This document shows, piece after piece, positions 25,902-64,000 of a stretch of 64,000 nt of DNA. Both the position numbers and the translations under genes were made by a program. The notes under the pieces are model-generated. The model searched no databases. It was not told the origin of the DNA and saw only the letters and a program-made list of their open reading frames with translations. The stretch spans positions 79,534-143,533 of the forward strand of contig JBLMZI010000005.1 of NCBI GenBank assembly GCA_050258755.1. The letters are read 5' to 3'. The DNA comes from Solirubrobacterales bacterium. GTDB lineage: Bacteria; Bacillota; Syntrophomonadia; Syntrophomonadales; DTU052. Numbering within the stretch: position 1 is the first letter of the stretch; each line of letters opens with the position of its first letter.

Positions 25902-26051
25902 AATTTATCAGGATTCTTGCCGGTGGAATAAAATGGCAGGAACCTCGAAAATGGCTCATAAAAGTGGGAGTCCGTAGTGTCTGGTGAAAACCGCAACGGA
26001 CCCGAGAAGGCTAATCCTCTTGCTTAACCAACAAGTAAGGGGGTTTTTTTA

Positions 26052-26987: not shown

Positions 26988-27053
26988 GCGCGTCTGGGAT
27001 TTGGGGAATCTTTTCATAACCCCGCCGCGCGGATTTAAGGCCTTTTAACAGCA

Positions 27054-27088
27054 GAAGAGAGTATGAGTTCGGCTCATACTCTCTTTCT
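27054..27088. terminator. Bidirectional terminator between int and the Mrr-like gene
   Basis: AGAAGAGAGTATGAG TTCGG CTCATACTCTCTTTCT. Confidence 0.7.
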
Positions 27089-27227
27089 GTCTCACGATGA
27101 TGGCAAGCGCCTTTTCTACTGCGTAATACGTGCCCAATTGAGGCTCAAAGTCAGTTTTGGAAGGGTAACATATAGCCATTTTAAATAGGCGGCTTAGAAG
27201 TCAATTTCTCCTCCCAAGATGTACCAT

Positions 27228-27989
27228 TTACCGCTTCCGCTGATGCTCATAGCAGTAGATGGCTCCCCCAAACCGCTTCTCGTTATCTAAACAGTATTGA
27301 AGGACCTTCTCTGATACAGGTTTACCGCAATGAGCGCACACTGCTTGGGTAGGTTCTTCTGTTGCCGCCGCCTCCGGTTCGCTGGCTTCAGGTTGCATCT
27401 CATGAACCTGGGGCAAGGGGACAACTTCCGCTTCAGCCTTCGCTGGCAATGGGGCTGGCGTATCCTTGACCGACAGAAGTGCTCTTACCAAGTCATCTCG
27501 GTTCCAAAGCTCCACAGCATTGGCCTTGGCAAGTTCGATAGCTTGATTCGTGTAAAAACTATTTGTGACGACCATAGCTTTGGTGCAGCCGTACTTTCCC
27601 TTCGCCGCCACCGCTTCCTGAACCGCCTTAATCCCGACCTTGTTTTTGTATCGTTTGGCCTGGATGACCGTTTTCACGCCGTTTTTGCTTGTTATGAGGT
27701 CAGCCCCGTAATCGCCGATGTACTGTGTCCGCTCAACCTTGTATCCCAGCTTTGTAAATAGTACCTCCAAGTACTTCTCAAAGGTCTTTCCGCTCATTCC
27801 ATCAATCTGGTCGATACCCGATTCCGCCAGCCGCTTCTTCTCCCAAATGCGAAAGATAAACTTACCGATGACCACAAGTGCGATAAGCGCCCATATCGGC
27901 CATGTAACAGATAATCCGCTGAATGTTGCTTTCAATAAATCGAGGGTAGATATCAACGAAATTCCCCCTGTAATACTAGTTTTCACCAT
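27228..27989 (-). CDS. Membrane-anchored Mrr-like restriction endonuclease domain protein with C-terminal zinc finger
   Basis: One N-terminal TM (WPIWALIALVVIGKFIF). Mrr_cat-like core GKTFEKYLEVLF...GDYGADLI...VIQAKRYKNKVG. C-terminal CAHCG...CYEH. Confidence 0.75.
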   Translation of the reverse strand: MVKTSITGGISLISTLDLLKATFSGLSVTWPIWALIALVVIGKFIFRIWEKKRLAESGIDQIDGMSGKTFEKYLEVLFTKLGYKVERTQYIGDYGADLITSKNGVKTVIQAKRYKNKVGIKAVQEAVAAKGKYGCTKAMVVTNSFYTNQAIELAKANAVELWNRDDLVRALLSVKDTPAPLPAKAEAEVVPLPQVHEMQPEASEPEAAATEEPTQAVCAHCGKPVSEKVLQYCLDNEKRFGGAIYCYEHQRKR

Positions 27990-28217
27990 ATTCCACGCAA
28001 AAGGAGTAATCCCTTCTTCCGTCCTTGTTAACCGCCCGGTTTTTGTTCCTGATACCTTGTTTAGTTTTTCTTACTCCTGTTGTGATTAACATTCTGGTCA
28101 TCCGCCTAGCCTAGGTTTGAGGCCCAAGCTAGAGCCGGATGGAGGTGAATGAACTCCGAATATGGCCTCAAATATCAAACTCACCTTGAACGGCGAGTAT
28201 CGAAAGGAAGCGATAAT

Positions 28218-30416
28218 ATGTCTACAAGCCCTACCCATGCCACCTACATTTACAATCATGACCTTATCCCCGAAGAACTCAAGCAATTCCCCCAATGGAT
28301 TCACTGGAGGGGTGAATGGGATGAAAAGTCAGGGAAACTTAATAAGATTCCTCAGCAAGCCATTTTGGGGGGAAATGCCAAGGTTAATGACCCATCGTCG
28401 TGGTGTGACTACGAAACAGCCGTAAAGGAACAACGCGAAAGCCCGTTACCATTTGGACTGGGCTTTGTTCTTACTGAAGAAGACGACATTATCGGGTTTG
28501 ATTTTGACCATTGCATTGATGAGAACGGCAAAATAGCTGATTGGGTTCAGAATGACTTCATTTCAGTATTGCGTAGCTACTCCGAAGTATCTCCCTCAGG
28601 AAAAGGAGTGCGGATATTCGTCAGAGGTTTCTTGCCCGGTCCATCAAAGAAGACTCAACAAATTGAGGTTTACGACAAAGGAAGGTATTTAACCGTTACA
28701 GGTAACCACATCGAGGGCACTCCGACCAGCGTCGAACATCGGCAAAATGAAATCGAAGCCATCTATCAAAGGTATTTCGGGCCTATTGAGAAAGCCAAGA
28801 AAGCTAAGAATCAAGTGATGCATTCTAGCCACCCCGTATTGGCAAACTACGGTAATGGTCTTTCTGACAATCAGGTCCTGTATCTTGCACGTAGCGCCCA
28901 AAATCGCGACAAATTCAATGCATTATGGTCGGGAGAGTGGGACTCGATTGGATATCCTTCGCCGAGTGAAGCGGACCAAGCACTCTGTTCTATGCTTGCG
29001 TATTGGACAGCCAAGAACGCCGAACAAATAGACCGTTTGTTCAGGAAATCGGGGTTAATGCGGGATAAATGGGACGAGAATCGCGGCGAGCATACTTATG
29101 GGGAACTAACGCTAATCAAAGCGATTGGCGTAACACTGGAAACATATGACCCAGCCCATCTTCTCGGCACCGACCATGACAATGCCATCAAAATGAACCA
29201 TATTGATGTTGCCAAACACATTCTCACCAACTATCAGTGTTACTATTATCAAAACCACCTGTATATCTACAGCAACGGAGTTTACAGGGTTGGCGACTAC
29301 CTTATTGAAAAACAGGCCCACAATTTACTTGGTAAACACGCAACTTCCCGCAATGTTAGCGAAGTGATTGCCTGGATACAGCGAGAAACCCGTATTGATG
29401 ACCTCGCCATGAATCCGGATGATGGTCTAATTAATGTTCAGAATGGCCTACTGAACTGGCGGACGGGTGAACTCTTGCCGCATACGCCTGAACGGTTGTC
29501 CACGGTTCAGATTCCAGTTATCTATGACCCCGCCGCCAAGTGCGGAACGGTGGACATTTTTTTGAATAGTGTGCTGCCCCAAGACCTTATTCCGGTTTAC
29601 TACGAGATGCTCGGCTATTGCCTGGTACCTCATGCGAGGTATGAAAAAGCCTTTCTGTTTGTCGGTGAAGGGTTTAACGGTAAGACTACCGCTTTATCCA
29701 TTCCCCAAGCCCTGGTTGGTAGTGAAAACGTGGCAAATATGTCTTTACATCAAGTTGAGGGACGGTTTGGGGCGCAAAATCTTCGGGATAAAATGCTATG
29801 CGTAGATGATGACCTTCCTGGACGAAAGCTCGAAGAAACGTCAATATTCAAAAAAATAGTCTCAGGGCAATCGTTAACGGTGGAAGAAAAGGGTAAGCCG
29901 CACTTCAACATCAAACCCACTGTTAAGCTTCTTTTCGCTGCCAATCACTTGCCGGAATCAGCCGATAATTCGAACGGGTTCTGGCGTAGATGGATTGTGT
30001 TCCCTCTAAGTAATGTATTCGGAACAAATCCAGACCGCGAACTCGGTATGAAATTGACCTCTCCGGCCATGCTTTCAGGAGTATTGAACAAGGCAATCGA
30101 AGGGTTGCGCAGATTGGAGTCACAGAATGGATTCAGTTATGCGGATTCAGATAAATCAGGCCTTGAGGCATGGCGGTATGAGAACGACAATGTGCGGCAG
30201 TTCGTTGACGAATGCTGTGAGATGGCCGGGTATCAGTCAAAAGTTGAGATACACAGGCAGTACATGGTCTGGGTGGCTGAGTCTGGGCAAACCCCGGTAG
30301 GGCGTAATAAGTTTTACTCTCGAATTAAGACGATAAGTGGTGTCGAAGATAGAAAGGACGCCAACGGAATCCATTGCTTTTACGGTATCCAACTCAATCC
30401 ATCCGCAAACTTCTAA
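28218..30416 (+). CDS. Bifunctional prim-pol / P4-D5 family primase-helicase
   Basis: N-terminal AEP prim-pol motifs (GLGFVLTEEDDIIGFDFDHC, SPSGKGVRIF). D5_N-like middle region. Walker A GEGFNGKTT and Walker B LCVDD. AAGGAAG lies 7 nt before ATG 28218 (ORF opens at 28149). Confidence 0.85.
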   Translation: MSTSPTHATYIYNHDLIPEELKQFPQWIHWRGEWDEKSGKLNKIPQQAILGGNAKVNDPSSWCDYETAVKEQRESPLPFGLGFVLTEEDDIIGFDFDHCIDENGKIADWVQNDFISVLRSYSEVSPSGKGVRIFVRGFLPGPSKKTQQIEVYDKGRYLTVTGNHIEGTPTSVEHRQNEIEAIYQRYFGPIEKAKKAKNQVMHSSHPVLANYGNGLSDNQVLYLARSAQNRDKFNALWSGEWDSIGYPSPSEADQALCSMLAYWTAKNAEQIDRLFRKSGLMRDKWDENRGEHTYGELTLIKAIGVTLETYDPAHLLGTDHDNAIKMNHIDVAKHILTNYQCYYYQNHLYIYSNGVYRVGDYLIEKQAHNLLGKHATSRNVSEVIAWIQRETRIDDLAMNPDDGLINVQNGLLNWRTGELLPHTPERLSTVQIPVIYDPAAKCGTVDIFLNSVLPQDLIPVYYEMLGYCLVPHARYEKAFLFVGEGFNGKTTALSIPQALVGSENVANMSLHQVEGRFGAQNLRDKMLCVDDDLPGRKLEETSIFKKIVSGQSLTVEEKGKPHFNIKPTVKLLFAANHLPESADNSNGFWRRWIVFPLSNVFGTNPDRELGMKLTSPAMLSGVLNKAIEGLRRLESQNGFSYADSDKSGLEAWRYENDNVRQFVDECCEMAGYQSKVEIHRQYMVWVAESGQTPVGRNKFYSRIKTISGVEDRKDANGIHCFYGIQLNPSANF

Positions 30417-30421
30417 GCTGC

Positions 30422-30468
30422 GTGAGGAGGTTCATCCAGTATTGGGTGGACCTCCTCCGCTTTCATTC
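30422..30468 (+). terminator. Putative terminator after the primase gene
   Basis: GAGGAGGT...ACCTCCTC stem followed by a TTTCATT tail, which is weak. Confidence 0.45.
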
Positions 30469-30510
30469 CAGATTCTCATACGTAATTACGGCCAGCTTAT
30501 CGCTCCTTTT

Positions 30511-30700
30511 CCAGTTTTCCAACTTTATATAGACTTCTTCTTCAATGACATTCACGGGGGGATACCTCTTTTACCTTGCTTTTCAGCAGAAACCAAGAAA
30601 TAATTGGAAAACTGGCCTCCTTGTGAATATTTCGGGGCTTCTTTGGATTCATAAAGTGGACAACTGTTGGCTGAAAACTGGCGTTGGACCGAAAACTGGT
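30511..30700. repeat. Iteron cluster, putative replication origin of the element
   Basis: GTTGGAAAACTGG-type repeats: inverted copy at 30511..30523, direct copy at 30604..30616, and a tandem pair GTTGGCTGAAAACTGGC / GTTGGACCGAAAACTGGT at 30666..30700. An AT-rich stretch lies beside the first copy. There is no convincing ORF in 30417..31083. Confidence 0.5.
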
Positions 30701-31083
30701 AATCGAGTACCTTTGGGGGTATTTGTGAGAATGAAGCATGGCAATTACTTAACCGTCTTGATTTCCAACTCCGAACCAAACAAGCGGTTTGTAGCTGTAT
30801 TTCCGTCATGGTTTCTCGTATTGTCCGGTATTGCTTGCGACAGACCCTGATGATGAGGGCTCCCCTCTGCTCTCAGATTGGTCTGTGTTGCACTACACGC
30901 TCTCTTTGCCGCTGCCCCTTTTTATGCCTGGAATACCTGAGTTGTTCACGTTTCTGGCATCGGGGGTGGCTCAACAAAGAACAACGGCTACACACTCGTT
31001 GTGGATATCGGCAAGCTGCGTTAAGAAAACATCACCGCTGTCTATTCTAAGGTTAACAAGATAAATACAAAGGAGGTTTTGAA

Positions 31084-31341
31084 ATGATTAACCCGTTCGT
31101 CCAACTCTACCAAAATGAAGGTGTATCGCTTATGGCATTTTGCACAAAGCATGAGTTGCCTATACCCACGTTCAAGTCGCTAGTATCTGGTCAAGCCAGC
31201 GGTGTATCGCGAAATATGCGCAATATACTGACCCAAGCCGGATTTGATGGAAATATGTTGGATATCAACTACCAGGCGTGGTTAAATCGCCGAGCGGAAG
31301 AGGAGTACCGTCGCGTACGGGGGGAAGTTCAAAACGCCTAA
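31084..31341 (+). CDS. Hypothetical small protein, possible HTH
   Basis: AAGGAGG RBS. 85 aa. The segment SLMAFCTKHELPIPTFKSLVSG looks helix-turn-helix-like. Confidence 0.55.
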   Translation: MINPFVQLYQNEGVSLMAFCTKHELPIPTFKSLVSGQASGVSRNMRNILTQAGFDGNMLDINYQAWLNRRAEEEYRRVRGEVQNA

Positions 31342-31394
31342 ATGCGCTTCGGCGGCTAAGACATACGGCTTATACAATCAAGGAGGTTATTACA

Positions 31395-31688
31395 ATGAAA
31401 CGACTACCCGTTGACCAAGTATTCAGCTTGATGTCCTATGAAGACAGCAGACTGCATTTCGATACCGAACCAGTAAGAAAGGCATTCTTCAAATACATGA
31501 AGGACAAACTTGCCGATACCTGTGCTGAAAACTCTATCGCTCACTATCTTGCGGAAGCCACCTGGAGAGATGTCCAGGAACGTAATGCGCTCCTGGCGCG
31601 GCTTACAAGGTATTTCAACCGATACGGATGGGACCTGCCCCCGGACCCAAAGTATTATATGGGTAAGTACACCTCGCTATTTCGGTAA
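31395..31688 (+). CDS. Hypothetical protein (97 aa)
   Basis: AAGGAGG lies 8 nt before ATG 31395, inside ORF 31278..31688. No family recognised. Confidence 0.5.
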   Translation: MKRLPVDQVFSLMSYEDSRLHFDTEPVRKAFFKYMKDKLADTCAENSIAHYLAEATWRDVQERNALLARLTRYFNRYGWDLPPDPKYYMGKYTSLFR

Positions 31689-31708
31689 TTCTCGCTTCCT
31701 TCGCTCAG

Positions 31709-31745
31709 CCCCGCCCACAATCCACAGTGGGTGGGGTTACTCTTT
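31709..31745 (+). terminator. Rho-independent terminator
   Basis: CCCCGCCCAC / GTGGGTGGGG stem followed by a TTACTCTTT tail. Confidence 0.6.
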
Positions 31746-31794
31746 GGGTGTCAATACCAACCGAACTATTATCATTTCGAGGAGGCGCAATACA

Positions 31795-31827
31795 TACGAA
31801 AAGGGTGTAAGTTCAACCTACACCCTT
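31795..31827 (-). terminator. Terminator of the M-R-Vsr operon
   Basis: The reverse strand reads AAGGGTGTA GGTTGAACT TACACCCTT followed by TTTT. Confidence 0.7.
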
Positions 31828-31840
31828 TACAAGCAAATCA

Positions 31841-32326
31841 TTATTTCGTTGAGTCGGTATCATAGTCAGCCCGCGATTCTGCGGCGAGAAACCCTGAAGG
31901 CGGAGGAAAACCACTTTTGGCCTGAGCAATGAAGTTCGCTATCTGACTGATTGTCCCGTAGTAGTCTTCAATAAGTTGATGCTCCCAAACCCGGAGAATA
32001 TGCCAGCCGGATTCACAGTAATATTGGGTCACTTCAGCATCCCTTTGCCGGTTTCGCTCCATCTTCCTTTCCCAGAAGTCCACGTTGGATTTTGGCATTC
32101 TACAATGCTGTGGGCACCCATGCCAAAAACAAGAGTCCAGAAAGATTACAATGCGGTATTTCTTGATTGCTATATCCGGCTTACCGGGCAGGTCTTTTAC
32201 ATTTCTTCTGAATCTATGACCACGTTTCCACAATTCAACTGTTACGGAGTCCTCGAATTTTGTATGTTTGTTTTTTACAGCCCCCATTACCCGACTTCGA
32301 ACTTCCCGTGTTACGCTATCGGTCAT
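31841..32326 (-). CDS. vsr: Very-short-patch repair endonuclease
   Basis: SRVMGAVKNKHTKFE...GKPDIAIKKYRIVIFLDSCFWHGCPQHC is the Vsr signature. 4-nt overlap with the upstream gene. Confidence 0.9.
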   Translation of the reverse strand: MTDSVTREVRSRVMGAVKNKHTKFEDSVTVELWKRGHRFRRNVKDLPGKPDIAIKKYRIVIFLDSCFWHGCPQHCRMPKSNVDFWERKMERNRQRDAEVTQYYCESGWHILRVWEHQLIEDYYGTISQIANFIAQAKSGFPPPSGFLAAESRADYDTDSTK

Positions 32327-32928
32327 GATTCCAAAAGATATTGTTCCGCTTTGATGATTATTTCTTCCGCTGATTCATTCCGGGGGCGGAGCCTTTCGGC
32401 CCACGACCTACCTGGATGCAGGACATCCCAGCGTGAGACGTACTGATTATATCTACCGGAACCCGGGTCGTGGTTGCCGAAACCATCAATCAGATGATTC
32501 CATATCGGTTTGAACGTCTCAATTAACAGTGATTCAGCTAATGGAATCCAGATGTCATCAACCACAAGATACCTACATTTAAAATCGCTCAACTCAAGGT
32601 TTTCAGCTTGTTCAACAGATGAGGCGTGCTCTTGAAGCCTATTGAATAATGCTTTCCCCGGTGCGGCTCCCAGTCCGAACCCACCTTTTCGCGCGCCGGG
32701 AGGTACAGCTTTTCCGACATAAATAGGCTGTAAAAACATGTCATCTCTGTTTTGTTCGGCAATGCGGCGATAAGCAGTGAATGTACCAGTATAATACAGC
32801 GCATATATTCCCGCTCCTTCGAAAGGTTCTGCGGGAGGTAACGAACCAATTTCCCGGCTTAACATAGCATCGACAACGCTATCCGCCAAATTGCGCTTAT
32901 CTAATGGGTTGTACGGTGTTTCGCTCAT
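32323..32928 (-). CDS. GIY-YIG type II restriction endonuclease, Eco29kI-like
   Basis: Motif order GIYALYY ... PIYVGKA ... RLQEH ... LAESLLI ... PIWN, with the long GIY-to-YVG spacing I associate with the Eco29kI family. 4-nt overlaps with the methyltransferase and vsr. Confidence 0.7.
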   Translation of the reverse strand: MSETPYNPLDKRNLADSVVDAMLSREIGSLPPAEPFEGAGIYALYYTGTFTAYRRIAEQNRDDMFLQPIYVGKAVPPGARKGGFGLGAAPGKALFNRLQEHASSVEQAENLELSDFKCRYLVVDDIWIPLAESLLIETFKPIWNHLIDGFGNHDPGSGRYNQYVSRWDVLHPGRSWAERLRPRNESAEEIIIKAEQYLLES

Positions 32929-34106
32929 TGCGCCACCTCCAACCTTCGCTGTCCTTCCAATGTCCTACGGACACTTTCAACGACAATTTCTCCAAGCCTT
33001 ACAGGGACCGCGTTTCCAATCTGCCTCATACTTTCAGACCAGGAACCATCAAATGCGAAATCGTCCGGGAAGGTCTGTAATCGTGCGCTTTCCCTCACAG
33101 TGAAATACCTAACGCTACCGTCAGCTTTAACCACCATGTTTTCACCTCCAGGCACCCCATGGTCCCCGGCTTTCAATGTCTTTGCGGGTTCATCCATAGG
33201 ACTTCCTGTATGACCGTGATATGCCCGCGCACCGTCCCGGAATTCATGGTTCATTATGTTTCCGCGCTTATTAACTCTCTCGGGGTCAGGTAAGCCAACC
33301 AAAGCGTCCCTAACCGTTCTCCACGGCAGCGTAATGGGGGGGGTATCGCTTGCTTTAAGTCTACGAATACGCCCAGTTACAGCTTGCGGGTTTGTGGCAT
33401 TGCTCCTTACTCGATGACGGTCCCAATACTCACCTGAAACATATTGGCTCCATAACAGGGCACCGTAGGAATGGGTTGGTTCTGGGAAAGCCCATTCAAT
33501 ACCTAAATCGTTTCTGAACCCAACAATAAACACTCGTTCCCTTTTTTGGGGCACGCCGTAATCAGCGGCGTTAAGCATCCGGAAAACAACATTGTACGAT
33601 AACCCCTTGTGTCTACCTTGGGTATGATGTCGCTCAAGTCTGTCCAAATGCGCTGTCCATTGTTCGTTCTTTCGTTGTGTAAGCTCAGGATAGGTTACCT
33701 GAAGAAGTATGTATTCAAAATATCGGCTGAACGTTTCACGGAGTAATCCCTTTACGTTCTCGATTACTACAACCCTTGGTCTTAATTCCCTTATCGCCCG
33801 TATCATCTGGGGGAACATATTTCTGTGGTCCTCGTTGCCTCTGTGTTTTCCTCCAACAGAAAACGGCTGGCATGGCGGACCACCGGCTAGAAGGTCAATG
33901 TCGGTATACTTGGTGAAATCAATCAAAGCGACATCGCTTTCAACCAAAGGCCACTCCATTACCACAGGATTACCCCGGCGTTGGTTTAATCGGATTGTAT
34001 TACAGGCGTCGTTGTCCCATTCGACCAGTAATTTATGATTAAAACCCGCGTTTGAAATACCCAGAGCAAGTCCACCCGCACCGGCGAACAACTCAAGCGA
34101 ATTCAT
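32925..34106 (-). CDS. DNA (cytosine-5)-methyltransferase
   Basis: Motifs ELFAGAGGLALG (I), GGPPCQPFS (IV), ENV (VI), QKRERVFIVG (VIII), GNAVP (X). GGGGGAGG RBS before ATG 34106 (ORF opens at 34196). Confidence 0.9.
   Translation of the reverse strand: MNSLELFAGAGGLALGISNAGFNHKLLVEWDNDACNTIRLNQRRGNPVVMEWPLVESDVALIDFTKYTDIDLLAGGPPCQPFSVGGKHRGNEDHRNMFPQMIRAIRELRPRVVVIENVKGLLRETFSRYFEYILLQVTYPELTQRKNEQWTAHLDRLERHHTQGRHKGLSYNVVFRMLNAADYGVPQKRERVFIVGFRNDLGIEWAFPEPTHSYGALLWSQYVSGEYWDRHRVRSNATNPQAVTGRIRRLKASDTPPITLPWRTVRDALVGLPDPERVNKRGNIMNHEFRDGARAYHGHTGSPMDEPAKTLKAGDHGVPGGENMVVKADGSVRYFTVRESARLQTFPDDFAFDGSWSESMRQIGNAVPVRLGEIVVESVRRTLEGQRRLEVAQ
33336..33343 (-). repeat. C8 homopolymer inside the methyltransferase coding sequence
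   Basis: The + strand G8 run encodes Thr-Pro-Pro (ACC CCC CCC) in DTPPITLPW. Confidence 0.9.
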
Positions 34107-47079: not shown

Positions 47080-49848
47080 ATGCAGTTTTTCAAACGCAGT
47101 CTGACAACCCGTTTGGTCGTGTCATTCTTGCTCCTTTCAGCGTTCACGGTGAGCGCGGCTGGGGGCATTGCCTATGCGCTTGCGCTCAAAGCGCTGAAGA
47201 ACAATATTTACGCCCGCCTGGAAGAAGCCTCCCAGCACAAGGTAGATGGCATCACGCAGTGGATCGGCGAGCAGCGGTCTCAGGTGGTTTTTATTTCCAG
47301 GATGGACGCGGTGAATGATCAAGCGCGGGTTTTAAACCGCGCTGCACCCGGCAGCGCCGAATACCGAAAGGCCGAACAGGGGCTGCGCAACCTCTTTGCG
47401 GCCGCAAACAGCAGCAACCCTTCTTTTTCCGAGGTCTTTTTACTTTCCGACATTGGGGGCAAAGTCCTTCTGTCCTCCAACCCAACCAATGAGGGGACAT
47501 ACCGGATCAACGACACGTATTATGTCATGGGACGGAAACGCACCTATGTCCAGCCGATCTATCCCTCACCGGTCACCCTGCAGCCGACTATGACCATCGC
47601 AACCCCATTAAGTGATGCCATGACCACCCCACAGAGTGAAGCCCGAGGGCAAATCCGGGGTGTTATCGCGGTACACCTGAATCTGCGGATCATGGACAAT
47701 CTGGTCTGGAGTCACTCCGGACTGGGCAATACCGGACGCGCATATCTGGTCGAAAGGAGTAATATCCTGCTGGACTTCGCCCCGACCGTATCGAACGCCT
47801 ACCGCCGGGGCGTGCATTCTCCGGCGATTGATGCCGCTACCCGGGGACAAAGCGGAAAAGGCGTTTACGTGAACCACCTGCAGCGGGAAGTCATCGGAAG
47901 TTACCGGTGGATTGAGGAAGCGGGCGTCGCACTCATCACGGAAATGGATACCGGCGAAGCACTCGGGCCGGCCCGGGATCTGGCGTGGGCCATCCTGTTA
48001 GCCGGGCTGTTTCTGGTTGGCCTGATGGCGGTCGGATTCATGATGATGTCCCGCCGAATTGCCGGACCGATTCTGGCTATCAAAGAAAGCGCGCTCCAGG
48101 TGGCGGCCGGAAACTGGGATGCCCAGGCGCCGGTTGTGTCCGAAGACGAGGTTGGCACCCTGGCCCGGGCTTTTAATCAGATGGTTCTCCAACTGAATCG
48201 ATACCAGGAGATCCTCAGCGCCAGTGAAGCTTATTTTCGGGCACTGATTGAAAACGGTTATGATATTACGCTGGTGATTAACTTGAACGGGAAGACGCAG
48301 TACTGCAGCCCGGCTGTGAAACGGGTGCTTGGTTATGACCCCGAGGAAATGCTGGAACGCTCGCCGCTGGAACTGGTTCACCCGGAGGATCGCGAACGAT
48401 TGGTGCACTCAATGACCCATCCGACGGAAGGAAACCGTTTTATTGAGTTCCGCATGCAGCATGCGGACGGGAGCTGGCGGGCGCTGGAAGGGGCCGGAAA
48501 CGCATTTGAGGCGGGCGGTGTGGTCGGATATGTGATTAACTCACGCGACATCACCATTCGAAAGCAGGCTTTATCGGCGTTGGCTGTTTCGGAAGAGAAG
48601 TTTTCCAAGGCGTTTCATTACGCGGCCGATATTGTCTGCGTGGTGCGCATGGAAGACCAGCATATTATTGAGGTCAGCGACGCTTTCTTTAATCTTCTGG
48701 GCTATCAGCCGGAAGAGGTGCTGAACCACTCGTCGGAAGAATTCCATCTCTGGGTCGACCCGGAACAGCGGCAGGCGATTTACGAGCAGCTTGGCCGCTA
48801 TGAGGCCATTCGGAATGTGGAAGCCCTGTGGCGGACGAAGAGCGGCATGGTACTCACCGGGGTGGTTTCCGCCGAACTCGTCGATATTGGGGACGAGCCG
48901 TGCCAGATCATTGCCTGGCATGATATCACGGAACAGAAGCAGGCTCAAGATGCCCTGCAGCAGGCCAACGATGAACTGGAAATGAAGGTTCAGCTCAGGA
49001 CCGAGGATCTGCTGGCGATGAATCAGGAGCTTCAGGCCATGAATGAAGAACTGATGAATACCCTGGAAACGCTCCGCAACACCCAGATGCAGCTGGTTCA
49101 ATCCGAGAAAATGGCAGCCCTTGGGAACTTAGTGGCCGGGGTTGCGCATGAAATCAACACCCCGGTTGGGATTGCCGTTACCGCGATCACCAACCTGGAA
49201 AAGCTGTCCGGTACGTTTCAGGACCGATACTCCACCAAAAACGCCACCCGGCAGGAATTGGAAAGCTTCCTGCGAGACTGCGAAACAGCGGTGTCCATTA
49301 TCAAGCCGAACCTGGAACGGTCTTCCCGGCTAATCCAGAGTTTCAAGCAGGTGTCAGTCGACCAATCCAATGAAACCAAGCGGGTTTTCAGGATGCGGGA
49401 ATATCTGGACGAAATCCTGACCAGCCTGCATCCGCTGCTTCGGAAAACGAGAATTTCGGTCAAGGTGGAGTCGGATGAGATCACCATTGATTCGTATCCG
49501 GGCGATTACGCGCAGATTATCACCAATCTGATCACCAATTCGCTGACCCATGCTTTTGATCTGGGGGCGGAAGGCATGATCAATATTGAGGTGCGGCAGT
49601 ATGGTCAGCGCATCCGGATCATCTATGCCGACAATGGCAGGGGAATGGTGCCGGAGGTGATGAACCGCATTTTTGAGCCGTTCTTCACCACCCGGCGCGG
49701 AACCGGCGGCACCGGCCTTGGCATGCACATCGTGTACAATCTGGTTACCCTGCGTCTGGGCGGATCCATTGACTGTGAAAGCCTGCCGGGGCAGGGAGCC
49801 AAGTTTATCATTTGGCTGCCGATTGAAGAGGAATTGGTTTCCGTTTAA
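47080..49848 (+). CDS. Membrane sensor histidine kinase (extracytoplasmic Cache-like domain, HAMP, two PAS, kinase core)
   Basis: Two TMs flank a ~270-aa loop. HAMP (EDEVGTLARAFNQM), PAS regions, H-box AGVAHEINTPVG, ATPase GGTGLGMHIV. Confidence 0.85.
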   Translation: MQFFKRSLTTRLVVSFLLLSAFTVSAAGGIAYALALKALKNNIYARLEEASQHKVDGITQWIGEQRSQVVFISRMDAVNDQARVLNRAAPGSAEYRKAEQGLRNLFAAANSSNPSFSEVFLLSDIGGKVLLSSNPTNEGTYRINDTYYVMGRKRTYVQPIYPSPVTLQPTMTIATPLSDAMTTPQSEARGQIRGVIAVHLNLRIMDNLVWSHSGLGNTGRAYLVERSNILLDFAPTVSNAYRRGVHSPAIDAATRGQSGKGVYVNHLQREVIGSYRWIEEAGVALITEMDTGEALGPARDLAWAILLAGLFLVGLMAVGFMMMSRRIAGPILAIKESALQVAAGNWDAQAPVVSEDEVGTLARAFNQMVLQLNRYQEILSASEAYFRALIENGYDITLVINLNGKTQYCSPAVKRVLGYDPEEMLERSPLELVHPEDRERLVHSMTHPTEGNRFIEFRMQHADGSWRALEGAGNAFEAGGVVGYVINSRDITIRKQALSALAVSEEKFSKAFHYAADIVCVVRMEDQHIIEVSDAFFNLLGYQPEEVLNHSSEEFHLWVDPEQRQAIYEQLGRYEAIRNVEALWRTKSGMVLTGVVSAELVDIGDEPCQIIAWHDITEQKQAQDALQQANDELEMKVQLRTEDLLAMNQELQAMNEELMNTLETLRNTQMQLVQSEKMAALGNLVAGVAHEINTPVGIAVTAITNLEKLSGTFQDRYSTKNATRQELESFLRDCETAVSIIKPNLERSSRLIQSFKQVSVDQSNETKRVFRMREYLDEILTSLHPLLRKTRISVKVESDEITIDSYPGDYAQIITNLITNSLTHAFDLGAEGMINIEVRQYGQRIRIIYADNGRGMVPEVMNRIFEPFFTTRRGTGGTGLGMHIVYNLVTLRLGGSIDCESLPGQGAKFIIWLPIEEELVSV

Positions 49849-58238: not shown

Positions 58239-61200
58239 ATGTTCACGAACAATAATGGCTTAAAGGAATTTGATCTGATCTCCAAAGAACGCAGAAACAA
58301 CGAGGATCAGGACTACATCAATCTGCCTGAGGTGGTTTACGCAAAATCCCTTGAAGCCTATAACAGATATGAGAAAACCGGTGAACTGCCAGAGTACAAC
58401 TGGAACAGCACCTTCCTGAAACAGATCGGCAGGACCTACGGCGAAAAGCTGGTTGATTTCAAACTGCTGAGTTTTGTTGAGTTTACGCTGTACAAAGATA
58501 CGTATAAATCACAGAACTTTGTTGTGTTGAAAGACAATGAAACCAACCGGGTCTTTGATGCCGAAGGACAATTCATCTTACCGCGCTACCAATATGATTT
58601 TCCCGTCGACAAGGAGCATTCGAAGAAACTTTTAAATATTCTGCTCGATTACTTATATCAGACGCGATTCAAGCTGGAAAGCCATACACATTTTATTGAT
58701 ACCGGGGAACAGGTCGGGCACAGCAGTTATCAAGACGTGGATTCCTATACCAAGGCATTGCTGAAAAACTTCATGCAGGACTACGCGTTAAATAACAACG
58801 CCTATGGATTTGCCGGCTACCCAGCCATTCACTTTGCCGTTACCAGGGACGTTGTCATCATGATCGCCTTTAAGCCGATGAATAGTTTCTTTGTGGATGA
58901 CAGTATCGACGAACTCGAGAATATTTTTGATATCAGCATTGGTTTTTTTGCGAATACCCGCAAGATCTATAACTTTGAATATAAGAACCTGCTGAATCAA
59001 TACCGAGCCTATTCAATGTTTATCTACAAAAACGAGTTGGAGAGAAGTATCCGCGACTCCATTGGCGAGGCATCGTTGATTTCAAGATATTGGTACACTG
59101 AGGGTTTGCAGAAGGTAACGGAAAAGCAGGAGAAAACCAATCACGCCACCGACTCGTTTGATTTCTCGCAGATTTTCGTGAACGAGATTCTGAACGCACA
59201 GATTGACGGGGTGGAGAACATTGAGATATACCCGTTTGACCGGTGTTTCATTTTCAAAGATTCGGCGCTGATCAAGGCCGATCAAAACGATGAGGAAGAT
59301 GTGAAGCTGGTTACCTGCGAAACCTTGTTGATGAAGAAGAGTATTTCGGAGATCGAGAGCATCAAGCAGCGCAATAATTACGTGTATGAGTGGGACCGGC
59401 TGTTGTACGACATCAAGGACTATGACATTGATTACAGCAAAAAAAATGTCGAGTTCAGCGACTGGAGAATCGAATACAAAGATCGGCTTCAGTTCGAACA
59501 CAATTTAACCGAATCGTATTCCGGGCTTAAAGACGATCCGGCGAAAGCCATCGATTTCATGCTTTACAATCTGATCTGTAAAAAGGCCAGCACCAAACAG
59601 CTGCTCGAACTGGAAAAGGAATGTTTCAGCAATGATGACGGCTTGTGTTACATCTACCTCAAAAACGTGGATTTGAACACCATGCAGATGTTGACCGCTC
59701 TGCAGGAAAAATATTTGCGGGAAATTTACAAAGATGTGAAGCAGATGGAGGAGTTTCTCAGCCAGGTCGACACGAAAAACGCCAAAGTCGTTTTTGTTTC
59801 ATATGACCCGAGCAGGGTTAAGTCGGAAAACAATATTAAGATCGAGCAGAAACACGCATTCAGTATTTTGATTGTGGTCGACGCGGACATTCAAAAGAGT
59901 GTAATGGAAATTCAGTCCGAAAAAGAAGATTTAAAAACCGCGGTGAAACTGATTGTCCGGCAAAAAACCGAAGCCGCCGAGCTGGTCAAAATGGAACGTG
60001 AGAAGCAGAAAAGCTTCATTTTAAACCAACTCAAATCGACTTTGCACAGTATCAAGGGCAGAGTGCACGACATGAAGGCAAAACAGGAATTGGATCAGAT
60101 GCTGCGCGATTTCAGCCAAAAGCTGAAGGAAGATACCCTTGAACTGAAAACGACCTTGGTCAATCAAAGCACCCCGCAAGAGCGTTTTAAATGCCTGTTC
60201 CGCGAGATTACCGGCGACATGTTCGAAAGGTCGGGCGGCAGGTTGTGGGATAAAATCGTGCAGGAAATTGCGAACTCGAATGATCCCGCCTTTTTCAATA
60301 CCCGAAGAAGCCTCGAGTGCACAGACCCTTTGGAGTCGGTCGGCATCATTGTCTATGAGAGTTTCCTGCCGGAGTTTAGTATTCTGATGGATAAGATCAC
60401 ACTTCAGGAAGCCTTTCATGTCGTCCTGAAAAACACCGTGGAAGAGGCGAAATCGACCGACGACAAATTCGTGGCCATCCAGTTCAATGTTGGGTATGGC
60501 GACAAGGACCGGGGGGTTCTAAGCATCCAGCTCATCAATTCCTGTCATCCGATTACCGAAGAAAGGCTGCAGGAGATGAATACGGCGGTCGAAGAAGTCT
60601 CAATCAACGAAAACAAAGAGGGTTCAACCGGCTTTGGCGTGGCTTCGTCCCGAGCCCAGCTCACCAGCCGTTTCGGAGCAGAGGCCTCGATCAAGTACCG
60701 CCTGCTGACCAAAAACCAGATTAGCACAACCTTGACGATGCCCATTGTCTTCCTACAGAATGACACGATTTTCGGGGACGGGCGGGTTGCCCACGAGGTA
60801 AAAGAAAGCTGCAAAGTCGTTTACCTTGAAGATGAGAAAACATACTATCAGGAATCCTGCGCGTATTTGGACGGGATGATCAAAGGGCATTACCGCCATA
60901 CCACCACGGCGAACCTGTTTGAGGAATACTGGAAAAAGGCCGATATTCTCTTTACCGATATTAGCGTGCCCAACAAGGAAGGGGGTAAGGCGTCTCCAAC
61001 GTTCGGACTCAGCGCAATCAACAACTTCTTCCGATTGGGTCAGGGCAAAACCATTTTCGTGCTGTCCAACAGCGAGTCCCAGGGGATTAAAGAGGATATC
61101 CTCACGCGGAGCGGCTTAACCAGCGGCAGTATTACGGAGCAGGATATCCTGCTTGATCTAAATGAGATTAAAAAAGGGAAAATCTACGTCGCGGATAATG

Positions 61201-61985
61201 TGAAATCGATTAAGACCCTGATGGAGAACCATCCGGCGGTGATCGATTTTCTCAAGCAGCATTTTGGGATTGACGACGACGGTGAGGCGGAGCCAGTGCC
61301 GGATGACAGCGGCCAAGCGGAGGCGTATACTATCGAGTCAGCCGAAAGCTTTGAACAAATCCTGGAAACCATCTCGATGGACACGCTGGCAAGTCGGTAT
61401 GTTCTGCGAGATGTAACGAATGATCAGCTGCCGGAAGTCTTTCGAAGGTGGACCACTAAAATGATTTACCTTCCGGATATTGAGGACCAGGAGTGCCTTT
61501 CGAATCCGGATTTGGTGGATACGCTGCTGTTTATCCAATTGAGTGACTGCTCGGCGTTTAATGTCATGGACTCCACGCTGTTCGGTTTGAAAAACAACGT
61601 CGTTTTCGTACCGTCTGCCTACTCCAATACCCAGCAAGCCTGCCTTGAGATTGCCCGGCAGTATCAGGAGCGCATCAGTCTGACCAGCAGTGGGATTTTG
61701 TCAGCCCTGAACCATGATTTGGCGAAGTATGAAGATCCGGCCGTCAAAATGATTCGGGAAAAAATCATCAGCAGCAAAGCCTACACTGTCGCAAAGACCT
61801 ATAAAATCGATTCGCTGATATTGGCCGAACCGAAAGCCGATTTAGACGAACTGCGTTATATCCAGGACATTAAGCAGGAATTAGAGATCTATGCCCGGGA
61901 AACGAAAGACCAAATCCTGCTGAAACATGTTGAGAACCTAACCTTCTGCCTGACGCTTTGCCAGGCCATGGCTGGAGGTGAGTAA
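58239..61985 (+). CDS. Giant soluble histidine-kinase-like / receiver hybrid protein with unknown N- and C-terminal domains
   Basis: ACAGGAGG RBS. 1248 aa, no TM. Coiled-coil then LKSTLHSIKGRVH (His603, nt 60045). N-box-like HVVLKNTVEEA. G2-like EGSTGFGVASS. Receiver VVYLEDE...ADILFTDISVP (Asp907, nt 60957)...FVLSNS...VADNVKS. A ~240-aa C-terminal region includes ILSALNHDLAKY. Confidence 0.75.
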   Translation: MFTNNNGLKEFDLISKERRNNEDQDYINLPEVVYAKSLEAYNRYEKTGELPEYNWNSTFLKQIGRTYGEKLVDFKLLSFVEFTLYKDTYKSQNFVVLKDNETNRVFDAEGQFILPRYQYDFPVDKEHSKKLLNILLDYLYQTRFKLESHTHFIDTGEQVGHSSYQDVDSYTKALLKNFMQDYALNNNAYGFAGYPAIHFAVTRDVVIMIAFKPMNSFFVDDSIDELENIFDISIGFFANTRKIYNFEYKNLLNQYRAYSMFIYKNELERSIRDSIGEASLISRYWYTEGLQKVTEKQEKTNHATDSFDFSQIFVNEILNAQIDGVENIEIYPFDRCFIFKDSALIKADQNDEEDVKLVTCETLLMKKSISEIESIKQRNNYVYEWDRLLYDIKDYDIDYSKKNVEFSDWRIEYKDRLQFEHNLTESYSGLKDDPAKAIDFMLYNLICKKASTKQLLELEKECFSNDDGLCYIYLKNVDLNTMQMLTALQEKYLREIYKDVKQMEEFLSQVDTKNAKVVFVSYDPSRVKSENNIKIEQKHAFSILIVVDADIQKSVMEIQSEKEDLKTAVKLIVRQKTEAAELVKMEREKQKSFILNQLKSTLHSIKGRVHDMKAKQELDQMLRDFSQKLKEDTLELKTTLVNQSTPQERFKCLFREITGDMFERSGGRLWDKIVQEIANSNDPAFFNTRRSLECTDPLESVGIIVYESFLPEFSILMDKITLQEAFHVVLKNTVEEAKSTDDKFVAIQFNVGYGDKDRGVLSIQLINSCHPITEERLQEMNTAVEEVSINENKEGSTGFGVASSRAQLTSRFGAEASIKYRLLTKNQISTTLTMPIVFLQNDTIFGDGRVAHEVKESCKVVYLEDEKTYYQESCAYLDGMIKGHYRHTTTANLFEEYWKKADILFTDISVPNKEGGKASPTFGLSAINNFFRLGQGKTIFVLSNSESQGIKEDILTRSGLTSGSITEQDILLDLNEIKKGKIYVADNVKSIKTLMENHPAVIDFLKQHFGIDDDGEAEPVPDDSGQAEAYTIESAESFEQILETISMDTLASRYVLRDVTNDQLPEVFRRWTTKMIYLPDIEDQECLSNPDLVDTLLFIQLSDCSAFNVMDSTLFGLKNNVVFVPSAYSNTQQACLEIARQYQERISLTSSGILSALNHDLAKYEDPAVKMIREKIISSKAYTVAKTYKIDSLILAEPKADLDELRYIQDIKQELEIYARETKDQILLKHVENLTFCLTLCQAMAGGE

Positions 61986-61986
61986 G

Positions 61987-64000
61987 ATGCAGCGATCGTC
62001 ATATAAGAAAGCGGAAATCGTCTGGATCGATGACGTCTTCGGCCTTGAGGAAATGACCCGCCGCCTGGATTCCGGCATCAATTTCTGGGAAGAGATGTTC
62101 GGCGCTCCGGAAAAAATCTACCGCCTGATGAACATAAAAATCAAACTGATCACCAATTACAGCGATGCGATCAGCTACATCAACTCCTTGTCCCAAAATC
62201 GTTCAACGTATTACTATTTCATCGTCGACTTGACCCTCCCTAAAAACCTCGATGATTTACGAAAGAAGGAAGCCTATCCGTCCTACGGCAAAAAGATTGG
62301 CAAAAAACTTGTGGACAAGGGTTTCGCGTTTTCATTTCTGACCAGCGCCAGCGAATTGGGATCACTCCGGGCTGAAGAAAAGGATCTGTTACTGGCCGAT
62401 TTTCACATCAAGGAATACCACAAAAGCCTATCCCTGCCGGATTCTCTGAAAAACAAATTATTGTTCCACCTGCAGTCACATATCAACTGGATCAACATCA
62501 AAGAGAATTTTTTCACCAAAATCAGTGAATCGTCTAACATCAGCAATAACCAGGAAGAGGCTTTTGAGTACTTCCCGTATCTCGACGCATACAAGGATTT
62601 TGTTAATATTGCCGAATTCAACGAGTTGGACTTGAGCCATCCGATCTTTATCAAGAGCCATCTCTTCAACAACAAATACTATGAGCAGCAGTGCGTGCTT
62701 CTGCTGTTGTCCGAAACGTTCCATGTCAACCGGTACCGGAAACTGGACGTGCATTATATCGACTTATCGTTAAGCGATCCCGGTGAAAGCGATATCCGGA
62801 TGAACGAGTTCTATGCCCAATTCAAGGACAAAATTGACAAAGACGTCATCTGGATCATCAAGCTGGCCTTGCTCGACAAGAAACACTTCAAGCAGCTGCA
62901 GGAAACGCTGAGAAACCAGAAATGCATTTTCATCGTGAACGACGAAGAATATGAAAGCTATCTTGAACAGGTGAACTCCAGCTACGGACTGTCCGAGCTG
63001 CCGTACTTCAAAGACGATGACTACATCCAGAAAAAGAACCTGCTGGACCACATTCTTAACCTAAAAATCGAGGAAAAACTGGCCGACCGTGAGATTGAGG
63101 TCGCGTCCATTTACCAGGAGCACCCGGAACTGCTGATGGATGTTCAGGCTTATATCGCCTTAATCAATCCCGCATTCGGGATTCAGGAGCTGTCAGACTC
63201 GTATGAAATGGTCGAGTGGGTGGTCAAGCTGTTTAATCGGCTCGAGAAAGAGATCGTGGTCAACATGGTCCACAACCGGCCGATTTCCTATGACAAACTG
63301 ATCGGGAAAGAAATCCTGGAAAATTTGCAGAAGGCGCATTTGCAGCGGATAAAGGAAGAAAGCGCGGCTTACTGGCTGAAGACGTCCTGGGGTTTTCCGC
63401 ATGGGGTCTCGATTGATAAATACGGGCTTTCAACCGAGGCGAATGATGCGTGGGAAATGAACTCGCTGCGGATTTTATCCCATCTGCTGACTGATCTGGA
63501 CGGTACCCGGAATGAGACCCTGCGCAACCTGAAAGAGATTTTCCGCCATGAATACATTCGGACGATTGTCGATGAAAAGGACCGCCGGAAAGTCTCCAAA
63601 GAGGTCGACACCATGATCAAATGGCCGCACCGTGAATACCCGATGCCGTCGATCCTGCATAAGAAGTTTGAAGAAGACAATAAACACCTGTGGTTTAACC
63701 ATACCAAGCTGAACTATGTGAGCTACTCCCGGAAACTATCGCTGTATTTCCGTCAGCTCGACCTTTACCTGGACTATTACGACATTGTCCTGGAGTTCAT
63801 CCACAATACCTACCAGATGCTCCCCAGGATTTCACATCGGTTTATTGAAATGGCGCTTGGCGACATCACTGAGAAGAAGTTCTCCGCGAAAGACAGTGAG
63901 TTCAAGGAGGAGTTCAAGAAATACCTGTACGGCATGCTGAGTATCTCTCTGATTTTTACCGAAATAATCGAGAAAAACGAAATATCGGATATCGAGTTTT
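61987..64000 (+). CDS. Receiver-domain protein with large unknown output region (partial, continues beyond the window)
   Basis: Not in the ORF track because it has no stop. I translated it by hand: 671 codons with no stop. ATG lies 1 nt after the upstream TAA. N-terminus EIVWIDDV...YYYFIVDLTLP (Asp81, nt 62227)...FSFLTSAS...FHIKEY is a complete receiver signature. The rest has no recognised motifs. Confidence 0.7.
   Translation, partial: MQRSSYKKAEIVWIDDVFGLEEMTRRLDSGINFWEEMFGAPEKIYRLMNIKIKLITNYSDAISYINSLSQNRSTYYYFIVDLTLPKNLDDLRKKEAYPSYGKKIGKKLVDKGFAFSFLTSASELGSLRAEEKDLLLADFHIKEYHKSLSLPDSLKNKLLFHLQSHINWINIKENFFTKISESSNISNNQEEAFEYFPYLDAYKDFVNIAEFNELDLSHPIFIKSHLFNNKYYEQQCVLLLLSETFHVNRYRKLDVHYIDLSLSDPGESDIRMNEFYAQFKDKIDKDVIWIIKLALLDKKHFKQLQETLRNQKCIFIVNDEEYESYLEQVNSSYGLSELPYFKDDDYIQKKNLLDHILNLKIEEKLADREIEVASIYQEHPELLMDVQAYIALINPAFGIQELSDSYEMVEWVVKLFNRLEKEIVVNMVHNRPISYDKLIGKEILENLQKAHLQRIKEESAAYWLKTSWGFPHGVSIDKYGLSTEANDAWEMNSLRILSHLLTDLDGTRNETLRNLKEIFRHEYIRTIVDEKDRRKVSKEVDTMIKWPHREYPMPSILHKKFEEDNKHLWFNHTKLNYVSYSRKLSLYFRQLDLYLDYYDIVLEFIHNTYQMLPRISHRFIEMALGDITEKKFSAKDSEFKEEFKKYLYGMLSISLIFTEIIEKNEISDIEF

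Follow-up and report, generated by a model that had tools for sequence, protein, structure and literature searches.

Hybrid histidine kinases such as ArcB, BvgS, TorS, ShkA (6qrj) and LvrB (8vc9) are the described proteins that come closest in domain order to the subject of this study. The closest described systems are Detocs, in which a kinase (DtcA), a buffer receiver (DtcB) and a receiver-effector (DtcC) work as an anti-phage system (bioRxiv 10.1101/2023.01.24.525353), and the CorA branch of type III CRISPR, in which CorA obligately comes with the NrN (DHH) phosphodiesterase, as a pair or as a fusion, wyl regulators lie near and signalling uses SAM-AMP (PMC10600005). Here, a 64,000-nucleotide stretch of contig JBLMZI010000005.1 (assembly GCA_050258755.1, a metagenome-assembled genome (MAG) labelled Solirubrobacterales; positions 79,534 to 143,533 of the forward strand), called the window below, was analysed for a gene, A, encoding a 1248-residue protein, and for the genes that accompany it (B, C and D). 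On the basis of structure, profile-profile comparison and transitivity via distant relatives, A is homologous to the histidine kinase superfamily and is best described as a real, extremely divergent, membrane-less hybrid histidine kinase with a predicted kinase activity. Literature searches returned no description of this architecture. The features of A were assigned as follows, with the evidence in brackets (pLDDT, predicted local distance difference test; AF2, AlphaFold2; DHp, dimerization and histidine phosphotransfer; CA, catalytic and ATP-binding).

58239..61985, + strand: gene A, 1248-residue soluble hybrid histidine-kinase-like protein (ATG start; open reading frame list)
58239..59903, + strand: N-terminal alpha/beta module, putative input, residues 1-555 (AF2 model; conservation)
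59901..60128, + strand: predicted signalling helix and DHp-like helical hairpin, residues 555-630 (model helices 555-608 and 612-630; Foldseek matches to DHp+CA)
60045-60047, + strand: codon of H603, on helix 555-608
60147..60758, + strand: CA (GHKL ATP-binding) domain, residues 637-840 (HHalign; Foldseek; Pfam HATPase_c in relatives)
60432-60434, + strand: N-box N732
60537-60539, + strand: G1-position N767
60624-60638, + strand: G2 box, S796-G800
60810..61268, + strand: receiver domain, residues 858-1010 (HHalign; (beta-alpha)5 in the model; Pfam in relatives)
60828-60833, + strand: E864/D865 of the receiver
60957-60959, + strand: D907 of the receiver
61065-61067, + strand: S943 of the receiver
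61203-61205, + strand: K989 of the receiver
61269..61388, + strand: acidic linker, residues 1011-1050 (pLDDT 23-43, disordered; low conservation, many gaps)
61389..61982, + strand: C-terminal domain, residues 1051-1248 (three-stranded alpha/beta sub-domain followed by a helical bundle in the model)
61713-61715, + strand: codon of H1159, invariant together with W1071 and G1152

As in the hybrid kinases named above, a DHp histidine, a GHKL CA domain and a receiver with the full residue set follow one another in A, a C-terminal domain with an invariant histidine comes after them, and a receiver protein (B) is encoded downstream. A differs from these kinases in its identity of 10-15%, in being missed by Pfam, NCBIfam and PDB sequence searches, in the invariant Asn that stands in place of the G1 Asp, in a C-terminal histidine domain that is not recognisable as a histidine phosphotransfer (Hpt) domain, and in having neither transmembrane segments nor a PAS, GAF, HAMP or TPR input detectable by sequence.

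Structure was one of three independent lines of evidence for the kinase core and the receiver. The AF2 model of residues 551-1248 (mean pLDDT 70) opens with a 54-residue helix and the helix that returns from it; an alpha/beta sandwich and a (beta-alpha)5 domain come next, and beyond a disordered acidic linker a small alpha/beta sub-domain precedes a helical bundle. When this model was compared with the PDB by Foldseek, 98 matches at E<=1e-3 were obtained, and the top matches were all DHp+CA cores of histidine kinases (~1e-6, 10-15% identity), namely LvrB, RetS, CpxA, HK853, ShkA, AgrC, BceS, KinB and GacS. By HHalign, the CA segment was aligned with canonical kinases at 97.9% (E 3e-13) in a register in which the N-box Asn is matched by N732, the G1 Asp by N767 and the G2 box by STGxG. 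An earlier interpretation made from the letters of the DNA (the sequence-only reading) had proposed a kinase-like core in A and had pointed to the GHKL and receiver folds as what structure prediction should reveal; the core is borne out by both comparisons, and both folds are present in the model. For residues 590-660 it had left a choice between a DHp hairpin and an Hpt bundle. In the model, two helices form a hairpin joined to the CA domain, and the Foldseek matches are DHp+CA cores, so that the DHp-type hairpin was retained and the Hpt bundle was rejected.

Conservation was assessed in 34 diverse members of the A family with 16-46% identity to the window protein; the family itself comprised ~75 family-sized cluster representatives in a profile search of 1.84 billion proteins. 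Fifteen columns were invariant (W285, R335, K402, E561, H603, N732, N767, G798, G800, E864, D865, D907, W1071, G1152 and H1159), and 11 of the 15 were counted as residues or motifs of the sequence-only reading (H603, N732, N767, G798, G800, E864, D865, D907, H1159, W1071 and G1152). K989 was kept in 33 of 34 members, and position 943 was Ser or Thr in all of them. The motifs of that reading are thus held among homologues, several without exception, which indicates that they are real, under selection and more than chance resemblances. Every motif string that it had quoted was located at its residue in A: TLHSIKGRVHDM (including TLHSIKG) carries H603, LKNTVEEA carries N732 at a spacing of 129 residues from H603, INSCHP carries N767, GSTGFG corresponds to residues 795-800, EDE to residues 864-866 (followed by D907, S943 and K989), the acidic linker string DDDGEAEPVPDD to residues 1012-1023, and ILSALNHDLAKYEDP carries H1159. 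The absence of a transmembrane segment was likewise upheld, with no 19-residue window at a Kyte-Doolittle hydropathy of 1.7, as was the Lys/Glu-rich stretch ahead of H603 (32% Lys+Glu, predicted as one long helix).

The first H-box has the consensus H-[RSK]-[AILV]-K-[GN], in which H603 is found in 34/34 members and K606 in 27/34. The G2 box (S796-T-G798-x-G800) is intact, with G798 and G800 invariant and S796 conserved in at least 90%. The G1 box D-x-G-x-G is absent from A; N767 occupies the Asp column in 34/34 members within a local motif N-[TS]-[TGS]-x-P-I. The description of this box as degenerate therefore holds in that it is not DxGxG, but the change is better seen as a selected substitution than as decay, because N767 is invariant. 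An Asn at the same position was also found in P0095, a Pfam-canonical HisKA+HATPase_c protein from the tail of the family search. Both H-box-like motifs of A resemble the HisKA_2/HWE H-box (H-R-V-K-N), and the second one, the R-H-D-[IL]-K-N around H1159, has its H-x-[ILV]-K-N signature, whereas HWE kinases carry W-x-E at G1 instead of N-[TS]-[TGS]-x-P-I.

The receiver inside A, also proposed by the sequence-only reading, was found as a domain of five beta-alpha units in the model and was aligned with canonical receivers by HHalign at 99.2% (E 4e-19); D907 falls on the acceptor Asp, and E864/D865 and S943 fall on their canonical positions. Three small receiver-like proteins from the family profile search, which lie outside the family (P0102, P0104 and P0106), share the E-D acidic pair of A and, together with A, a long insertion in the beta3-alpha3 loop (D-x-x-x-P-x7-10-G). 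This likeness hints at a wider subfamily of atypical receivers.

The relationship to known kinases was also detected through distant relatives of A. The window protein alone matched no Pfam family up to E<=1, nor anything meaningful in NCBIfam or among PDB sequences. Its sole PADLOC match, PDC-M52A at 0.026, is located on the coiled coil and was dismissed as an identity for A. Run against PDB sequences, the family profile retrieved a designed helical protein (0.019) and nothing else, neither kinase nor receiver. In a large protein collection, 12 clusters out of 5.8 billion carried a relative of A, none of the 12 with a Pfam domain. The weak tail of the family profile in the 1.84 billion proteins (E 1e-5 to 1e-3) consisted of canonical kinases and receivers; among 19 such proteins, HATPase_c was present in 13, Response_reg in 9 and HisKA in 9. 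Some of the 34 members also had Pfam matches of their own, namely HATPase_c in eight (E<=0.01, best 7e-5) and Response_reg in four (best 1.2e-8); HisKA-type models, including HisKA_2 and HWE_HK, matched 0/34. By contrast, a 922-residue sensor kinase encoded in the same window (47080-49848, + strand) carries dCache_1, HAMP, several PAS and HATPase_c domains in the precomputed Pfam matches. It lies 8 kb upstream of A, and ordinary kinases of this genome are readily detected.

The N-terminal module (residues 1-555) was modelled with high confidence (pLDDT 88.2, predicted template modelling score (pTM) 0.84) as alpha/beta lobes arranged on a 52-residue spine helix (248-299), with a conserved core comprising GEA..ISR.WY, YPFDR and the invariant W285, R335 and K402. 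Foldseek comparison of this model with the PDB and with BFVD (a viral structure library) gave no match at E<=1e-3. The sole extensive fold resemblance, which was not significant, was to the PAS-GAF-PHY region of phytochromes (3zq5: E 0.08, probability 0.38, TM-score 0.25). Like the phytochromes (Cph1 3zq5, 8rvx), residues 1-555 form tandem alpha/beta lobes on a long helical spine that runs into the kinase, but there is neither sequence similarity nor evidence of a chromophore-binding Cys or pocket. The sequence-only reading had seen neither a transmembrane segment nor a recognisable sensor fold in residues 1-~580; this stands as far as membrane segments and significant fold matches are concerned, yet the module is well folded.

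In the C-terminal domain, the helices were modelled with pLDDT 80-92, and H1159 lies in the motif G-P-L-S-x-L-R-H-D-[IL]-K-N. Within the 34 members H1159 was found in 34/34, D1160 in 30/34, R1158 in 28/34 and N1163 in 25/34. The motif resembles the H-boxes of HisKA (S-H-[ED]-x-x-[TN]) and of HisKA_2/HWE (H-R-V-K-N). A role of H1159 in phosphotransfer is plausible, as is the four-step His-Asp-His-Asp relay that had been suggested from the sequence. Neither the window protein nor any of the 34 members gave a Pfam Hpt or HisKA match in this domain, and the only profile match of the H1159 domain to a HisKA H-box covered 9 columns at a probability of 4% (HHalign).

Gene B follows A directly and extends beyond the window.

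61987..64000, + strand: gene B, first 671 of 922 residues, running off the window end (receiver-like N-terminus and large conserved region)
62029-62034, + strand: D15/D16 of B
62227-62229, + strand: D81 of B
62344-62346, + strand: S120 of B
62410-62412, + strand: K142 of B

The start of B at 61987 lies one base past the stop codon of A, and B is found directly 3' of A in 18/18 independent loci, in many of which the stop codon of A overlaps the start codon of B. By HHalign, its N-terminus was aligned with canonical receivers at 64% (E 6e-5) and with the receiver of A at 78% (E 2e-5), with D81 on the acceptor Asp. D15, D16, D81 and K142 were invariant in all 10 loci compared, and S120 is kept in closer relatives. 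The candidate acceptor Asp81 that the sequence-only reading had placed in the downstream protein is thereby supported in position and conservation; that A belongs to a conserved multi-gene cassette, of which the divergent upstream gene D appears to be a part, had not been noted there. No Pfam domain was detected in B, in 13 close or in 9 distant B proteins; the B profile had no match among PDB sequences, and B had no PADLOC match. A profile of the C-terminal region retrieved a single new, unannotated protein from the large protein collection, and HHalign showed no relationship of this region to the N-terminal, C-terminal or kinase segments of A. An RN-x3-4-H motif resembling that of HEPN proteins is present in the 13 close members, with one weak HEPN_Apea match (0.018). 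B was nevertheless rejected as a HEPN RNase, as a conserved R-x4-6-H is not maintained: the distant branch (L010, L012 and L013) lacks the His.

What the analysis established about domains, conserved residues and gene linkage leads us to infer a kinase activity, a phosphotransfer route, a cue, an output and a defence role that together make up the following model. The N-terminal module (residues 1-555) would sense an intracellular cue and pass the signal via the long helix to the DHp-like hairpin bearing H603, which would be phosphorylated by the GHKL domain with its N732, intact G2 box and invariant G1-position Asn. The phosphoryl group would then move from H603 to D907 of the receiver in the same protein and onward to D81 of B, possibly via the invariant H1159, in a His-Asp-His-Asp relay. 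Alternatively, H603 would pass the phosphoryl group directly to D81, and D907 would be a built-in phosphate sink like DtcB in Detocs. B, translationally coupled to A, would be the response regulator, and its phosphorylated form would switch on the output region of ~780 residues; the radical-SAM protein C and the CorA-like/DHH-like protein D would be frequent accessories. We consider it reasonably probable, though well short of certain, that A is a cytoplasmic, probably dimeric hybrid sensor kinase that drives B in a phosphorelay-triggered conflict or anti-phage system functionally like Detocs.

Several points weigh against this model. A is unmatched by Pfam, NCBIfam and PDB sequence models, and it falls short of two formal marks of a histidine kinase, lacking the DxGxG of G1 and scoring below the thresholds of curated profiles. 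In GHKL proteins the equivalent G1 Asp contacts the adenine N6, and with Asn there in every member ATP binding may be weakened or otherwise changed. Confidence in the modelled DHp part is moderate (pLDDT ~60-70), and the DHp segment was unaligned in HHalign. In the model, H603 lies 5 residues before the hairpin loop, which is closer than the spacing between His and loop in canonical kinases. Profile similarity does not support the H1159 domain as an Hpt or DHp domain. The receiver assignment of B derives from the HHalign values of 64-78% and from motifs, its C-terminal region of ~780 residues appears to be an orphan output with no recognised domain, and in the distant B branch the Arg of RN-x3-4-H is kept and the His is not. 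Finally, no PADLOC model matches A, B or C, and the defence role is a probable one drawn from context.

In comparison with Detocs, the cassette likewise comprises a soluble kinase, an extra and possibly buffering receiver, and a receiver joined to a large non-DNA-binding output (10.1101/2023.01.24.525353), encoded in a compact operon whose accessory or effector genes can be exchanged. It differs in that the input of A is an orphan alpha/beta module and not TPRs (no Pfam TPR, no TPR solenoid in the model), in that the extra receiver is fused inside A and no standalone DtcB-type receiver gene occurs in the cassette, and in that the output of B contains neither the PNP ATP nucleosidase nor a recognised effector, with radical-SAM and CorA-like/DHH-like genes added. 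The cassette was not assigned to Detocs, with which it has just the general logic in common; the only PADLOC model matched was CorA-like, and whether that release includes Detocs models was not verified.

The two further genes considered as cassette partners in this genome are given below; past the window end, the cassette continues on the MAG contig with NCBI proteins ACM3QZ_07070 and ACM3QZ_07075.

L001:16532-18022, ~4.5 kb past the window end on the same contig: gene C, 496-residue radical-SAM protein with ~200 unmatched N-terminal residues
55249..58020, - strand: gene D, 923 residues, DHH-like N-terminal and CorA-like C-terminal parts, divergent from A

Of the 16 loci whose sequence extends far enough past B, 11 have C as the next gene. 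C matched TIGR01210 RaSEA at 2.3e-29, which is below the equivalog cutoff, and queuine lyase 6p78 at 5e-4, and it is assigned by sequence similarity to the radical-SAM enzymes of the RaSEA/queuine-lyase/Elp3 clade; it had no PADLOC match. Its cysteines are spaced C-x4-C-x2-C, and those of some orthologues C-x8-C-x2-C, neither being the canonical CxxxCxxC, and the occurrence of a clade of 7-deazaguanine-related enzymes inside a defence-like cassette is intriguing. The third gene was rejected as a fixed component of the cassette: its place is taken by a P-loop protein in Herbivorax, by a CorA-like protein in L010 and by a KAP NTPase in L012.

D (895 residues in the public gene call on the same contig) has two C-terminal transmembrane helices (837-856 and 865-883); over residues 704-848 it matched the CorA-like model of PADLOC (E=2e-17). 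Its residues 46-439 match a 318-residue protein of L005 (BLAST 1e-7, small database), which in turn matches Pfam DHH at 2e-4. D pairs a CorA-like part with a DHH phosphodiesterase-like part, of which the DHH link is the weaker. It contains the motif HTFPDFD; the motif order is odd, with DQHH and DPHH (73-86) ahead of HTFPDFD (123-129), no Pfam family was detected in D, and the protein could be a permuted or degenerate phosphoesterase. A scan of the intergenic region between D and A for promoters and terminators gave no consensus sites. Homologues of D with the same architecture are found right after C in three alphaproteobacterial loci (L016, L017 and L018), in L005 C is followed by separate CorA-like and DHH genes, a CorA-like gene follows C in L006, and in L010 a CorA-like gene (PADLOC 7e-25) follows B. 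Relatives of D, or CorA-like or DHH-like genes, thus occur in ~7 of 18 loci, and the divergent upstream gene D appears to belong to the cassette.

The resemblance to the CorA/NrN modules of type III CRISPR lies in a CorA-like protein that adjoins or is fused with a DHH-family phosphoesterase, with WYL-type regulators nearby. The differences are that there is no Cas10, cas gene or array here, that a His-Asp phosphorelay lies upstream and that the module is present in only ~7/18 loci. Neither the window nor the loci contained a Cas10-like open reading frame or a CRISPR array, no large open reading frame carried a GGDD or GGDE motif, and no cas Pfam families were found in the flanks. With no array and no Cas10, D was rejected as part of a type III CRISPR locus.

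Other neighbours of A were observed in single loci or pairs of loci. A Metallophos phosphoesterase (231-237 residues) and a homologous protein of 527 or 583 residues (39% identity) flank the cassette at L004:17973-20262 and L008:1062-3520, and this pair may replace the DHH/CorA-like pair with another phosphoesterase and partner. Homologous proteins of 417-459 residues (40% identity) with two N-terminal transmembrane helices are encoded directly upstream of A at L004:8629-10008 and L005:8739-9992, the gene in L004 overlapping the start of A; they are perhaps optional partners of the kinase, anchored in the membrane. In the distant locus L013 (1336-9928), a Tubulin_2-domain protein (1010 residues) and three unannotated genes (687, 629 and 539 residues) stand ahead of A-B, and the 539-residue protein gave a marginal match to the CorA-like profile (3e-4).

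Relatives of A were found in 7 of 185,579 species-representative genomes, namely Sulfurimonas, two Planctomycetota, three Alphaproteobacteria and an Enterobacterales MAG; the MAG of the window and a Herbivorax genome are further carriers. Overall, the family is horizontally scattered over Actinomycetota, Clostridia, Campylobacterota, Planctomycetota, Alphaproteobacteria and Gammaproteobacteria. The guanine-plus-cytosine (GC) content of A-B-C is 0.46-0.49, that of the flanks 0.54-0.60, and that of D 0.52, nearer to the host. Across the loci, the cassette often adjoins genes of defence islands; among its neighbours are WYL/WCX regulators, an AAA_5 protein, a KAP NTPase, insertion sequence (IS) elements and Metallophos genes. 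Such rarity, scatter, GC content and neighbours are what mobile defence cassettes typically show, but they amount to circumstantial evidence. At the window locus the flanking genes are metabolic (amidohydrolase, pyruvate formate-lyase and its activase). A second stretch of low GC content lies at 26000-34000 of the window (0.46-0.48 against ~0.54), which suggests another horizontally acquired island, and the 64-kb window contains no tandem repeats.

The alternatives to the phosphorelay model overlap with it in part. One possibility, which we regard as rather unlikely, is that no direct toxin is activated and phosphorylated B, with or without C, instead produces or alters a small nucleotide- or SAM-derived signal, which opens the CorA-like membrane effector and is degraded by the DHH-like phosphoesterase, as a Cas10-independent counterpart of the SAM-AMP/CorA/NrN pathway of type III CRISPR. 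The CorA-like matches of D and of the third gene of L010, the fusion in D and the fusions or split pairs that follow the cassette in L016, L017, L018 and L005 speak for it, and C is a SAM-binding enzyme. The pattern is that of CRISPR CorA with NrN (DHH) and nearby wyl regulators (PMC10600005), here with no CRISPR array or Cas10-like reading frame in the window or the loci. However, neither accessory is obligatory, given ~7/18 loci for the CorA-like/DHH-like genes and 11/16 for C; in B neither a nucleotidyltransferase nor a cyclase motif is recognisable, and Pfam gives no match; the GC content of D is host-like and dissimilar to that of A-B-C; and the DHH assignment is weak, at Pfam 2e-4 for a homologue and BLAST 1e-7 against a small database.

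It is quite improbable that A-B is an ordinary, divergent housekeeping phosphorelay for metabolism or development, for example one controlling the radical-SAM enzyme, with no role in conflict. That all core domains are standard two-component parts, that no defence hidden Markov model matches A, B or C, and that the genes flanking the cassette in the window are metabolic would fit such a role, but the cassette is extremely rare and phylogenetically scattered, its GC content is below that of the flanks, and WYL/WCX, CorA-like, KAP NTPase, AAA_5 and IS elements recur as neighbours. Moreover, B has no DNA-binding or other known output domain, and a variable third gene is typical of defence cassettes.

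Little likelihood is likewise given to A being a pseudokinase or non-kinase GHKL protein, in which the G1 Asp-to-Asn change abolishes His phosphorylation and A is a phosphatase, phosphotransferase or scaffold, receives its phosphate from another kinase or uses the GHKL domain as a nucleotide-sensing switch. N767 replaces the Asp in all members, the window protein is below all curated HATPase_c thresholds, and RetS, reportedly a kinase-like protein acting without autophosphorylation, is among the top structural matches; yet the N-box Asn, the G2 glycines, K793, S796 and H603 are all conserved, nucleotide binding is presumably retained because the whole ATP-lid region is conserved, the canonical P0095 also has Asn at this position, and the non-kinase GHKL module that the sequence-only reading had allowed for is unlikely because an invariant His lies on the adjoining hairpin and two receivers are encoded in the operon.

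Returning to the phosphorelay model, the failure of every curated profile library to find the A family, despite its key catalytic and acceptor residues, means that two-component signalling is partly invisible to standard annotation. A is unusual in its 555-residue input module with no structural relative, its invariant G1-position Asn and its second domain with an invariant His. The strict pairing of A and B and the association with radical-SAM and CorA-like/DHH-like genes make the cassette a specific candidate, open to testing, for a new defence system, and a means of asking whether CorA/NrN effectors function apart from CRISPR. A further step, speculative and in our estimation improbable, would be an undescribed immune pathway in which a His-Asp(-His-Asp) phosphorelay replaces Cas10 as the trigger of a CorA-like effector with an NrN-like off-switch, the signal being a small molecule that the output region of B and/or C would make or modify; the invariant G1-position Asn might reflect the use of a nucleotide other than ATP. 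If this were true, CorA/NrN modules would be portable effectors used outside CRISPR, and two-component phosphotransfer would be able to gate second-messenger immunity.

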